Below, one piece after another: positions 48,510 through 52,242 of a stretch of DNA of 64,000 nucleotides (position 1 is the first letter of the stretch; each line of letters starts with the position of its first letter). Under the pieces are notes generated by a model. That model did not search any database and was not told the DNA's origin. It saw nothing but the letters and a program-made list of their open reading frames with translations. The position numbers and the translations under genes are program-made. This stretch comes from Escherichia phage 308Ecol101PP: sequence record OR062945.1; one strand, given 5' to 3'.

Positions 48510-48545
48510 GTTTACTTCCTCCAAGGGTTTTGATACTATACATTC
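48510..48545 (+). promoter_or_regulatory. early promoter for denV
   Basis: GTTTACTTCCTCC...TGATACTATA. Confidence 0.5.
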
Positions 48546-48566
48546 ATCAACTACTTGGAGGAAATT

Positions 48567-48980
48567 ATGACTCGTATCAATTTAACACTTGTTTCTGAAC
48601 TGACCGACCAACATCTTATGGCTGAGTATCGTGAATTACCACGCGTATTTGGTGCAGTCCGTAAACATGTTCAAAACGGTAAACGTGTAAAGGATTTTAA
48701 AATCTCTCCAACATTTATCTTAGGCACAGGTCACGTAACATTCTTTTACGACAAACTCGAATTTTTACGTTTACGTCAAATCGAGCTAATCGCCGAATGC
48801 TTGAAACGTGGTTTCAAAATCAAGGACACATCTGTCCAAGATATTTCCGACATCCCTGCCGAATTTCGTAATAATTATGTCCCGTCCGAAGCGTCCATTG
48901 CGATAAGTCAAGCACGCTTAGATGAAAAAATTGCTCAGCGCCCGACTTGGTACAAATACTATGGTAAATCAATTTACTAA
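48567..48980 (+). CDS. denV: endonuclease V (pyrimidine dimer DNA glycosylase)
   Basis: 137 aa [31 protein letters not shown]..., near-identical to T4 endo V. Confidence 0.95.
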
Positions 48981-48986
48981 GGAAAA

Positions 48987-49247
48987 ATGAAAATGTATCA
49001 AGAATTTATCGCTGAAGCAGATGCCAAAGGTCCTAAATTTAAAGTTAAAGCTTTCATTGGTGATGCGGAAGACTTTGGCTCATTAAAACGTAATGGGTAT
49101 TCTTTCTTAGGTGGCGATGGTAAAGAAATCAACACCTATGCAAAACGTAGTGAAATTGCTTATGTTGTAGCAAGCCCTAAAGTAGATGTTGACGATATTG
49201 GATACGATTTTAACAACTTTGGAATTATTTCTGGCGGTAAAGCTTAA
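48987..49247 (+). CDS. internal-protein-like protein with capsid-targeting N-terminus
   Basis: 86 aa starting MKMYQEFIAE. Confidence 0.6.
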   Translation: MKMYQEFIAEADAKGPKFKVKAFIGDAEDFGSLKRNGYSFLGGDGKEINTYAKRSEIAYVVASPKVDVDDIGYDFNNFGIISGGKA

Positions 49248-49310: not shown

Positions 49311-49640
49311 ATGAAAACGTATCAAGAGTTTATCACTGAAGTTACATTATCTGCGGAACAGAAAGCTGCTATCGAAGAAGGTAAAAATCCCAAAGTAACA
49401 TATAAAGTAAATGGTAAAGGCGTTTTTGATGGCTTGGTTCAAGACCCTGAATTGAAAAAAGCTCTTTCTAAAACTAATGCGTACTTTGCTCCTAAATTTA
49501 ACGCAGCCGGTGTACTTATTGGATTGGATGTATTCAACTCTAAAGGTGTTCTATCTAATGCCTTTGGTTATGCCGCTAACAAAATTACCAAAGCCGAATG
49601 GGAATCCAATACCAAACAAGCTCAAAAGCCTAGAGTATAA
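49311..49640 (+). CDS. internal-protein-like protein with capsid-targeting N-terminus
   Basis: 109 aa starting MKTYQEFITE. Confidence 0.6.
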   Translation: MKTYQEFITEVTLSAEQKAAIEEGKNPKVTYKVNGKGVFDGLVQDPELKKALSKTNAYFAPKFNAAGVLIGLDVFNSKGVLSNAFGYAANKITKAEWESNTKQAQKPRV

Positions 49641-49812
49641 TTCTTGCCTAATAAAGGGAAACGCAACCTCTCCTTATGAACGTCGAGTCCTCTAAGTGAT
49701 GTACCTTTTCCAACCTGTAATAAGGTCGAGCGCAATGCGGTAATGGGTTTACATAGCGAGTCGAAGGACCTAACATGTGCCACGGAACGGCCCAAACCTT
49801 AAGAGAAATAAT

Positions 49813-50352
49813 ATGAGAACATTTTTAACTGGACCTTATCTATCCCTGATGAATGCTTTTACACACCATTCTGATGCTAGAGTAGAAGAAATTTGTAAGA
49901 ACGGTTATGTCCCACCATTTGAAGACGTACTCAAGCAGTACTGTACACTTCGTTTAGACGGTGGTAGACAATCAGGTAAATCGACCGCAGTAACTAATTT
50001 TGCTGTTAATTGGCTGTATGACGGTGGAACAGTTATTGTTCTTTCTAATACTTCAGCTTACGCTAAAATTTCTGCTGGCAACATTGAAAAAGAATTTTCT
50101 CGTTATTCTAGCGACGATATTCGATTCCGTTTATTTACTGATTCTGTCCGTAGTTTTATTGGCAATGAAGGTTCTAAATTCCGTGGATTAACGCTTTCTC
50201 GTATTCTGTATATAATTGACGAGCCTATTAAAGCTCCTGATATGGATAAGATTTACAACATACATATTAAAACAGTCCAACACTGTTGCAAAAGCAAATA
50301 TTGCATCAGTGGTATTGCTCGTCCTCAATTTTTTGTGATTGGAATGCAATGA
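49813..50352 (+). CDS. small P-loop NTPase
   Basis: 179 aa; Walker A GGRQSGKST and Walker B-like LYIIDE. Confidence 0.5.
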   Translation: MRTFLTGPYLSLMNAFTHHSDARVEEICKNGYVPPFEDVLKQYCTLRLDGGRQSGKSTAVTNFAVNWLYDGGTVIVLSNTSAYAKISAGNIEKEFSRYSSDDIRFRLFTDSVRSFIGNEGSKFRGLTLSRILYIIDEPIKAPDMDKIYNIHIKTVQHCCKSKYCISGIARPQFFVIGMQ

Positions 50353-50657
50353 TGACCACTATTGAAGTTTTTGAGTATTGTTATAACAGCCCAGTATGCA
50401 ATAAAAGGGCTCTTGTAGAAAATTACGAGATTTACCATTTTAAACCTAAACGATATCGTTTGACTAAAGGTCCGTTCGCAGGGCAGCAGGTTCTTTGTAC
50501 TGCTCCTAATGCACGGTTGATGACTAGTATTCCGCATTTCAAAATGGAATTTATTGATGGGCCATTTAAGGGATTAATCACTCAAAGTTTAATGGCGTTT
50601 AATTCCGACCCATTTTTGATTAAAGAAAAATCTTGGATAAATTTATTTTCTAATTGA
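50349..50657 (+). CDS. hypothetical protein
   Basis: 102 aa; ATGATG coupling to upstream stop. Confidence 0.5.
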   Translation: MMTTIEVFEYCYNSPVCNKRALVENYEIYHFKPKRYRLTKGPFAGQQVLCTAPNARLMTSIPHFKMEFIDGPFKGLITQSLMAFNSDPFLIKEKSWINLFSN

Positions 50658-50663
50658 GGTTAT

Positions 50664-51026
50664 ATGAAAGCATATCAAATTCTTGAAGGCACACACAAAG
50701 GCACTATTTATTTTGAAGACGGTACTCAAGCCCGGATTATTGTCTCTAAGACTTTTAAAGAAGACGCTATTGTAGACCCGGAAATTTTCTACGGTTTGAA
50801 TGCCCGTGAAATTGAAATTGAACATCAACCTAAAGTTAAAATTGAAGGTGGTCAACACCTGAACGTTAACGTTCTGCGTCGTGAAACTCTGGAAGATGCA
50901 GTTAAGCATCCGGAAAAATATCCGCAGCTGACCATCCGTGTATCTGGTTATGCAGTTCGCTTTAACTCTCTTACTCCAGAACAGCAGCGCGACGTTATCG
51001 CTCGTACCTTTACTGAGAGTCTATAA
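50664..51026 (+). CDS. grcA: autonomous glycyl radical cofactor (GrcA/YfiD-like)
   Basis: 120 aa; C-terminal half ...[59 protein letters not shown] carries the RVSGY glycyl-radical motif. Confidence 0.9.
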
Positions 51027-51229
51027 TGGCTAAATTGATTATAGAAGGGACTGAAGATGTTTTAAAATGTTTTGCCGCCTGGTTTAGTTGCTCAGGCGAG
51101 CAATCATTCATTGAAGCATTTAGAATGGGTGATATTACTGGAAAATATCCGTCAACCGATATCACTGTACGCGGATATGGTATTAATGAGCCTATCCAAT
51201 TGGTCGAATATGACCCTTGCCACCGATGA
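51026..51229 (+). CDS. hypothetical protein
   Basis: 67-aa ORF, TAATG coupling. Confidence 0.45.
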   Translation: MAKLIIEGTEDVLKCFAAWFSCSGEQSFIEAFRMGDITGKYPSTDITVRGYGINEPIQLVEYDPCHR

Positions 51230-51240
51230 GGAAATTCCTT

Positions 51241-51507
51241 ATGTCGATTGAAGACATCAAAGGCTACAAGCCACATACCAATGATAAAATCAGTAAAGTG
51301 AACGCTATTAAAGACGCAGAAGTCCGTCTTGGATTGATGTTTGATGCTCTGATTGAAGAAGCATATATCTTGAAAGAAAATGAATCAGAGCAACAAACCA
51401 AAGAAGATATGGATGCAGTGCAGGCTCTTAAGTATGCTAAGCAACATCTAAAAGAAGCCAGCATGTGGGCATGTCGTGCAGTATTTCGACCTGAGGAAAA
51501 ATACTAA
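51241..51507 (+). CDS. hypothetical protein
   Basis: 88 aa from ATG after GAGGAAA RBS. Confidence 0.5.
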   Translation: MSIEDIKGYKPHTNDKISKVNAIKDAEVRLGLMFDALIEEAYILKENESEQQTKEDMDAVQALKYAKQHLKEASMWACRAVFRPEEKY

Positions 51508-51722
51508 TGGCTTCTACTATTACTGGGTTATTGGACTTTCAAGAAAAGGTCAACAAAATTTGTAGTGAATACTTAAAGTATCTTGAAGAAGACCTTGAAG
51601 ATTGTAAGGAAGAAGGCGAAGAAGACTATGCTGACCAGCGTCGTCGCCAAATCGAAGAGATGAGGCATTTCGCCGATATGGTATCTAAAGAATCTTGGGC
51701 TTTAACTCCATTTTATCAATAA
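51507..51722 (+). CDS. hypothetical acidic protein
   Basis: 71-aa ORF, TAATG coupling. Confidence 0.5.
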   Translation: MASTITGLLDFQEKVNKICSEYLKYLEEDLEDCKEEGEEDYADQRRRQIEEMRHFADMVSKESWALTPFYQ

Positions 51723-51726
51723 AGTA

Positions 51727-51772
51727 GTTTACTTCTCCTCTAGTTGTGTTACTATAGACCTGTCAACTAGAG
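51727..51772 (+). promoter_or_regulatory. early promoter with stem-loop (PeSL-type)
   Basis: GTTTACTTCTCCTC, TGTTACTATAG, CTAGTTG/CAACTAG. Confidence 0.5.
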
Positions 51773-51783
51773 GAGAAATCAAA

Positions 51784-52242
51784 ATGACTATCAATTCAGA
51801 CGTTTTTATCCGCCGCAATAAACTCCGTCGAATCTTTGAAACGGAGTTCCGCAAAATAAATGCCGGTATAAAAGATGCTGCAAAGTCTCTTGGACTACCA
51901 GGCTTTCATATCAAGTATTCTCAACATCTCTTAGATCGTGCCATCCAGAGAGAAATAGATGAGAACTACGTTTTTGAATTATTTCGTAAAGTAAAAAATC
52001 ATGTTAAAGAAGTTGCAGAATTTTTATCAATGCCGGCACGTCCAGATGTTGATGAAGATTTTGTCGAAGGTGTCGAATACCGTCCAGGCCGTTTAGAAAT
52101 AACTGACGGAAATCTTTGGTTAGGACTTACAGTTTGTCGCGAAAATCCAGCATTCAAAATGAAGACTCTTCAATGCAGAATGGCTATTATTAACAGTAAA
52201 CGACTACCAGGAAAAGCTTCTAAAGCAGTGATTAAAATCTAG
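51784..52242 (+). CDS. regB: endoribonuclease RegB
   Basis: 152 aa; size, position near tk/denV and recalled similarity to T4 RegB. Confidence 0.7.
   Translation: MTINSDVFIRRNKLRRIFETEFRKINAGIKDAAKSLGLPGFHIKYSQHLLDRAIQREIDENYVFELFRKVKNHVKEVAEFLSMPARPDVDEDFVEGVEYRPGRLEITDGNLWLGLTVCRENPAFKMKTLQCRMAIINSKRLPGKASKAVIKI

Follow-up and report, generated by a model that had tools for sequence, protein, structure and literature searches.

The vs.6 glycyl radical cofactor gene of a T4-like coliphage carries a patch of Escherichia coli grcA, probably through recurrent gene conversion

In our study we analyzed a stretch of 64,000 nucleotides of Escherichia phage 308Ecol101PP (record OR062945.1), referred to here as the window. 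At positions 50664-51026 (+) it carries an intact open reading frame of 120 codons coding for a protein of 120 amino acids. Based on the reading frame, the identity to T4, the synteny and matches in Pfam, NCBIfam and PDB, this is the ortholog of T4 vs.6, whose product is Y06I, and codes for a phage autonomous glycyl radical cofactor (GrcA-like). It shares 93.1% nucleotide identity with T4 vs.6 over 363/363 nt and 94% amino acid identity, which agrees with the first-pass annotation of a GrcA (YfiD) homologue and counterpart of T4 Y06I. A Shine-Dalgarno-like GAGG is read from the sequence at 50656-50659 (+), and the ATG follows 4 nt downstream. The upstream neighbour is a homologue of vs.7 (50349-50657, +), which was named by synteny with the T4, RB69 and phiE142 annotation and whose start was checked. 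Downstream lies a homologue of vs.5 (51026-51229, +) with only 31% amino acid identity to T4 vs.5, the ATG of which (51026) overlaps the stop codon of vs.6. The order vs.8-vs.7-vs.6-vs.5 is common to the window and T4 (collinear blastn matches to T4 59.5-67.9 kb), and the location of vs.6 between vs.7 and vs.5 in the early region from denV to regB recurs in RB69, phiE142 and mobillu. Nolan et al. counted vs.6 among only eleven T4 ORFs of then unknown function that were kept in all five other T4-like genomes (PMC1524935). Within 49700-51520, vs.6 is locally the part best conserved with T4 (87-98% identity versus 62-85% in the flanks). The closest records to the gene are those of phiE142 (Carettavirus, 99.2%), mobillu and RB69 (Mosigvirus), and the window reads as that of an RB69/phiE142-type T4-like coliphage. 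A scan of 49600-51800 for promoters and terminators gave nothing above the shuffled expectation.

Further upstream, two plus-strand ORFs at 48987-49247 and 49311-49640 begin with MKMYQEFIAEA and MKTYQEFITEV, which we take to resemble the N-terminal capsid-targeting sequence of the T4 internal proteins (ipII/ipIII). Both lie between the denV homologue (48531-48976) and vs.8; in T4, ipIII and ipII precede denV. The DNA match to T4 ipIII covers only the first ~65 nt (48952-49018, 76.8%). Upstream of the regB homologue, a 64-nt intergenic stretch (51726-51789) matches not only its collinear position in T4 but also, with 84.6% identity, the T4 intergenic region between ipII and denV (L002, 2506-2570), and it may represent a repeated promoter or regulatory element.

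The 120-aa protein matched PF01228 (Gly_radical) with 67.3 bits at a cutoff of 22.2 and the structure of YfiD/GrcA (PDB 6owr) with E=2e-42. TIGR04365, the NCBIfam equivalog model for GrcA, aligned to residues 18-120 with 159.1 bits, which is below its cutoff of 170 bits because the N-terminal half is divergent. No NCBIfam model was matched by the 60-aa N-terminal half alone. This half may be related to GrcA, as the TIGR04365 alignment reaches back to residue 18 and the short motifs ARxIVxK, xEDxxV and RE occur in both. The vs.6 product would work like GrcA, but it belongs to a phage lineage and is not a strict equivalog of the bacterial protein. With the glycyl radical domain of PflB and TdcE it shares the fold and the motif, and it matches PflB residues 696-759. 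The predicted glycyl-radical residue is Gly95, encoded by the GGT codon at 50946-50948 (+) within the RVSGYAV motif (RVSGYAVRF), as judged from the alignment to 6owr and PflB. The equivalent residues are Gly102 in YfiD and Gly734 in PflB, and the radical role of this glycine is described in PMC8683613. As far as the work of Wagner et al. 2001 is recounted in PMC8683613, only two "spare part" proteins have been validated by experiment, namely E. coli YfiD and T4 Y06I; the PFL-activating enzyme (PFL-AE) places the glycyl radical on both of them, and both restore PFL that was cleaved by oxygen at Gly734. The 94% identity to Y06I suggests that the vs.6 product of 308Ecol101PP likewise repairs oxygen-damaged PFL of its host. 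The PFL-activating enzyme of the host would install the radical on Gly95 of the 13-14 kDa vs.6 protein, and the C-terminal domain would then replace the piece that PflB loses after oxygen cleavage at the radical glycine, so that PFL activity returns. For the phage, the benefit would be that anaerobic or microaerobic energy metabolism is sustained once host gene expression has been shut off.

Nucleotide comparison with E. coli grcA divides the gene at a sharp breakpoint, which the maximum chi-square method placed at 50841/50842 (chi-square 87.9, permutation p at most 5e-4). Left of it the identity is 49% (43/85 mismatches in the ungapped part), and right of it 96.8% (6/185 mismatches). The mosaic of a phage-like 5' half and a host-like 3' half that the first-pass annotation had read from the sequence is thereby confirmed, and a uniform divergence from host grcA is clearly not what the gene displays. 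With blastn, no alignment to E. coli was obtained upstream of nt 133 of the gene. The breakpoint is directly followed by a perfect, codon-aligned match of 103 nt (50842-50944), and all six differences from E. coli grcA within the last 183 nt are synonymous (96.7% identity). The host-like part begins at 50842, but takes up less than the full 3' half. It forms an internal patch at 50842-51013 (+), which codes for the structured glycyl-radical domain and has 3 differences in 172 nt, all of them synonymous (50945, 50972 and 50978). The remaining tail at 51014-51026 (+) reads GAG AGT CTA TAA, where E. coli has GAA AGC CTG. The same GAG AGT CTA is found in the Slopekvirus phiKp_17, and the Jiaodavirus KP179 has GAG GCA CTA. 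Since the last three codons are phage-type, the arrangement is that of an internal patch and not of a fusion; a segment bounded on both sides by phage-type sequence is what gene conversion would leave behind. The 5' part (50664-50841, +) is AT-rich and of the RB69 (Mosigvirus) type. It is 100% identical to phiE142, deviates by 4 nt from RB69 and by 18 nt from T4, and has 72-78% identity to Jiaoda- and Karamvirus. It encodes the counterpart of YfiD's N-terminal half; in YfiD, residues 1-60 are disordered and residues 61-127 structured, and the patch sets in at codon 67 of E. coli, near the beginning of the structured domain.

Two further features on which the first-pass annotation had relied were reproduced, and they carry less weight than the nucleotide comparison. 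The GC content rises from 35.6% in the 5' half to 47.8% in the 3' half (window mean 38.1 +/- 3.8%), which places the 3' half in the top 1% of all 180-nt windows of the 64-kb window. However, the 3' GC content is raised in all phage homologues, including those that are not host-like (KP179 55%, phi1_146015 48%). Therefore, composition alone is no proof of transfer. Likewise, GrcA of E. coli is matched at every one of the C-terminal 60 residues (EGGQH...ESL), but this identity is uninformative because the domain is nearly invariant across 80 genomes of Enterobacterales and Pasteurellales. The signal lies in the synonymous sites.

At these sites the patch is specific to one species. Over the last 183 nt the gene differs from grcA of E. 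coli at 6 positions, of C. amalonaticus at 17, of Salmonella at 19 and of Klebsiella at 28-30. E. coli grcA itself differs from these three bacteria at 13, 15 and 22-24 positions, respectively. The bacterial set comprised 80 grcA genes obtained by genome scan, to which K. pneumoniae, Salmonella and Cronobacter were added via protein search. In a neighbour-joining tree of the patch, the phages of the T4/RB69 group were placed with E. coli and Escherichia sp. (bootstrap 179/200). A megablast search of the 64-kb window against 5,426 complete E. coli genomes returned 50842-~51031 as the sole match. We also considered pflB as a donor and rejected it, as the patch shares only about 80.5-80.7% identity with pflB of E. 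coli, compared to 96-97% with grcA.

The first-pass annotation further proposed a recent recombination with the host gene. A host-derived segment is present, but it does not go back to a recent event in this genome, because T4, RB69 and about 640 phages have the same patch and the same left boundary. In about 640 records of T4/RB69-like phages, T4 included, the identity to the segment of E. coli amounts to 95-99.5%. The number of differences from E. coli over the last 183 nt is 3 in T4, 5 in RB69, 1 in OES_C-2 and 11 in Killian; phiE142, the closest relative, has none inside the patch. For a comparison at sequence level we used 20 genes of the T4/RB69 group, in all of which the left boundary is identical. 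Scans of IMG/VR and metagenomes gained few additional copies of the T4/RB69 type, as these collections are dereplicated and most matches were bacterial. In the allele comparison, 11 T4-type genes were set against 6 RB69-type genes, and 3 mixed or recombinant genes were set aside. In the 5' part the two types are separated by 8 fixed differences, with a between-group mean of 17.7 and within-group means of 5.0 and 2.7. The patch has 0 fixed differences, a between-group mean of 4.9 and within-group means of 4.9 and 4.3. The contrast in fixed differences is significant (Fisher p=0.004); therefore, the patch is younger than the split between the T4 type and the RB69 type. Either it was converted independently in each allele type, or it moved between them. 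The single fixed difference between T4-type and RB69-type genes downstream of the breakpoint is found in the tail. The similar within-group diversity of patch (4.9) and 5' part (5.0) speaks against conversion still taking place very often in coliphages.

Exchange among phages also contributes to the history of the gene. Between T4 and 308Ecol101PP, dS is 0.25 for the whole of vs.6, 0.39 for its 5' half and 0.15 for its 3' half, compared to 0.9-1.9 or saturation for the flanking vs.8, vs.7, vs.4, regB and vs.1. That even the phage-type 5' half is less diverged than the neighbours hints at a phage-to-phage exchange of the whole gene. Recombinant 5' halves were found in Pu-Krd-SF1 and in the metagenome contig OCHD01000040.1 (L179). 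In this contig the 5' half is a recombinant of the RB69 and T4 types, and the 3' end is of the E. coli type up to the stop (GAA AGC CTG), unlike in the 19 other genes of the T4/RB69 group; this may be a conversion tract whose right end lies elsewhere. The varied combinations of tail codons could reflect recurrent transitions rather than different tract ends.

Corresponding observations were made in Klebsiella phages. The 5' part of the Jiaodavirus genes is 72-74% identical to that of 308Ecol101PP, and they are therefore copies of the same phage gene. Over nt 1-168 of the segment, 108 records of Klebsiella and Raoultella phages are 95-99% identical to grcA of K. variicola, compared to 84-87% for the coliphages. 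In the reciprocal search with the E. coli segment, the coliphages reached 95-99.5% and the Klebsiella phages 85.7-89.3%. A Salmonella-like patch, which served as a negative control, was found in no sequenced phage (best identity 91.8%). The Jiaodavirus sample consisted of 8 genes, 7 of which entered the statistics, and was compared with few Klebsiella alleles. Among the 7 genes, 26 sites are variable in the patch and 7 in the 5' part (p=2e-4). With mean differences of 9.7 and 2.5, the patch is about four times more variable. KP179 and L180, for instance, are separated by 14 differences in the patch but by only 1 in the 5' part, and up to 18 patch sites differ between genes whose 5' parts are almost the same. 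Where the patch ends on the right also varies among Jiaodaviruses (Nispero, Roth17 and others). In Roth79 (L269) and JD18 (L273) the gene encodes SLTSEQQ at nt ~313, with Ser in place of an otherwise universal Pro, and the same rare Pro-to-Ser variant occurs in a GrcA allele of K. variicola (P0002; L175/L176), so that it looks like the fingerprint of a host allele in the phage patch. At four informative sites in a row, L180 agrees with another Klebsiella sp. allele (L076). At 23/26 polymorphisms of the Jiaodavirus patch the alleles are also found in bacteria. This counts for little in our view, as most alleles occur anyway at third positions in a diverse set of bacteria. The deviations of the two groups are thus opposite, with a patch less differentiated than the 5' part in coliphages and more variable in Jiaodavirus. 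Both would be explained by a patch that follows the gene pool of the host, as grcA is almost monomorphic over this segment in E. coli and diverse in the Klebsiella/Raoultella complex.

Other T4-like genera do not follow this pattern. In Karam-, Slopek-, Pseudoteven- and Krischvirus as well as in T5-like phages, we found no recent host-like patch, each sampled bacterium being 28 or more differences away. Karamvirus differs from Enterobacter at 45-49 positions, Pseudotevenvirus from Cronobacter and Citrobacter at 36-37 and Slopekvirus from Klebsiella at 35. The process is therefore not universal. Besides, GrcA-like genes were observed outside the T4-like phages. They are present in Demerecviridae (T5, L088; T5-like phages, L133-L159 and L170) and in jumbo phages of ~350 kb resembling K64-1 (L115, L117 and L118). 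The T5 protein starts with MKAYQ as the T4-type protein does, and its N-terminal half is otherwise different. The copies of T5, the T5-like phages and the jumbo phages differ at 39 or more positions per 183 nt from any sampled bacterial grcA. Eight metagenomic phage contigs of about 150 kb (L109-L114, L120 and L184) carry a GrcA-like gene with a longer and much more bacterial-looking N-terminal half (SIWLIE..KARCLVAK). The 3' segment of L109 is nearest to Pasteurellaceae with 33-36 differences, and the nearest bacteria of the other contigs checked are mixed. This gene may go back to a separate, older capture of grcA.

On the comparative evidence as a whole, we consider it about 85% probable that vs.6 is an old phage gene whose radical-domain segment has been overwritten recurrently by host grcA via gene conversion. 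The gene would be vertically inherited, and the stretch 50842-51013 would have been replaced from host grcA through homologous recombination. T4-like phages degrade the DNA of their host, and their homologous recombination system is very active. Fragments of host grcA could pair with vs.6 over the ~180 nt that are kept similar by protein conservation. Pairing would stop left of codon 60, where the homology ends, and would be resolved a few codons before the stop. More than one event would be needed to account for the E. coli patch of both the T4 and the RB69 lineage and for the Klebsiella patches of Jiaodavirus, and the phage domain would track the gene pool of its current host. As each conversion restores near-identity, it would make the next one easier.

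The alternative closest to this reading is a single conversion or chimera formation in an ancestor of the T4/RB69-type phages, followed by vertical descent and phage-to-phage spread, with the Klebsiella patch as one further event. It would fit the left boundary shared by all genes of the T4/RB69 group, the phage-type tail in nearly all of them and the similar within-group diversity of patch and 5' part, and the recombinant 5' halves demonstrate that phages exchange parts of vs.6. However, the shared left boundary is expected anyway because the homology stops there. A conversion before the split predicts similar divergence of both parts of the gene, yet fixed differences are confined to the 5' part when it is compared with the patch, and a single conversion after the split needs a transfer of the patch alone. 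The reading also conflicts with the Jiaodavirus genes, in which near-identical 5' parts are combined with dissimilar patches and different right edges. For these reasons we regard a single event as unlikely, and recurrent conversion remains our preferred reading.

Explanations that dispense with a transfer from the host are far less probable. One of them is convergence of phage and host through extreme purifying selection together with the codon usage of highly expressed genes. The almost invariant 60 C-terminal amino acids in Enterobacterales and Pasteurellales and the elevated 3' GC content of all phage homologues are in line with it. However, the synonymous sites are species-specific, as seen from the counts for E. 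coli, Salmonella and Klebsiella, although these bacteria encode the same or nearly the same protein. Moreover, other phage genera reach a 3' dS of 0.6-2.2 among themselves, and the segment is therefore under no special synonymous constraint. Together with the perfect 103-nt run and the abrupt breakpoint, this makes convergence highly improbable.

Just as improbable is the reverse direction, in which a phage donated the segment to grcA of Escherichia and Klebsiella. Identity alone is silent on direction. The bacterial segment, however, follows the species tree (E. coli, Escherichia sp., Citrobacter and Salmonella, Klebsiella), adjoins a 5' half of the bacterial type without interruption and occurs in 5,426/5,426 E. 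coli genomes. None of these genomes has fewer than 6 differences from the vs.6 gene or carries its private variants, and the phage-specific substitutions therefore arose in phages. Among the 35 phage-private changes in the 20 phage genes, 19 are GC-to-AT, toward the AT-rich phage genome. In addition, lytic infection by T4-like phages seldom leaves survivors, which also counts against a phage-to-host transfer. An assembly or contamination artefact, in which reads of the host had been joined to the contig of the phage, has a negligible probability even though phage preparations are often contaminated with host DNA, since hundreds of genomes sequenced independently, the T4 and RB69 references among them, have the same junction, the reading frame is intact and the patch contains phage-private substitutions before it gives way to phage-type codons.

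In comparison with known systems, the gene is most similar to T4 vs.6. Y06I likewise has 120 aa, and its gene has the same vs.8-vs.7-vs.6-vs.5 neighbourhood and an E. coli-like patch. Of the seven amino acids at which the two proteins differ, six lie in the N-terminal half; the 5' half in our window is of the RB69/phiE142 type and its tail has CTA where T4 has TTG. E. coli GrcA (YfiD, 6owr) has the same arrangement of a variable N-terminal half and a Gly_radical domain, with the radical loop included in the identical C-terminal 60 residues and 98% DNA identity in the patch. Compared with it, the phage protein is 7 residues shorter and its N-terminal half is only about 25-30% identical. The closest analogue of the process is found in psbA and psbD of cyanophages, for which intragenic recombination between host and phage was described (Zeidner et al. 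2005; Sullivan et al. 2006, PMC1484495). There, too, a host-derived metabolic gene of T4-like phages shows patchy GC content and an exchange of segments between host and phage. In our case, however, the host is enterobacterial, the donor can be named to the species and phage and host are the classical pair of T4 and E. coli. Furthermore, the vs.6 patch corresponds to one structural domain, the tracking of the host is seen in two genera and there is evidence for the host-to-phage direction only. In the searchable literature on vs.6, Y06I and grcA in phages, we found no report of a nucleotide-level mosaic or of host-tracking conversion; the similarity may be mentioned in the primary paper on Y06I and in the review of the T4 genome. 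The gene and its biochemistry are already known and its annotation adds nothing, whereas its evolutionary behaviour may be new.

A more far-reaching version of our reading holds that ongoing, self-reinforcing conversion keeps the domain matched to the current host and that this match is adaptive, as the domain must fit PflB and be recognized by PflA of the host. We regard this as tentative and somewhat less likely than not. The match could be adaptive or a neutral by-product of homology. The vs.6 gene would provide a clean, species-resolved example in which a section of a lytic phage gene is replaced time and again by host DNA. As T4 and E. coli are the phage and host that have been studied best, rates and mechanism can be tested directly. 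A patch of ~170 nt in a T4 gene shares 98-99% identity with the chromosome of E. coli, and the corresponding patch is Klebsiella-like in Klebsiella phages. This calls for caution, since similarity between metabolic genes of phages and hosts can mean a recent conversion and not the time at which the gene was captured. The patch could also serve as a marker of the recent host and, if host-tracking is true, would record the recent host of a phage lineage. With T4 and E. coli, the conversion of a metabolic gene from host to phage could then be measured in a simple laboratory system.
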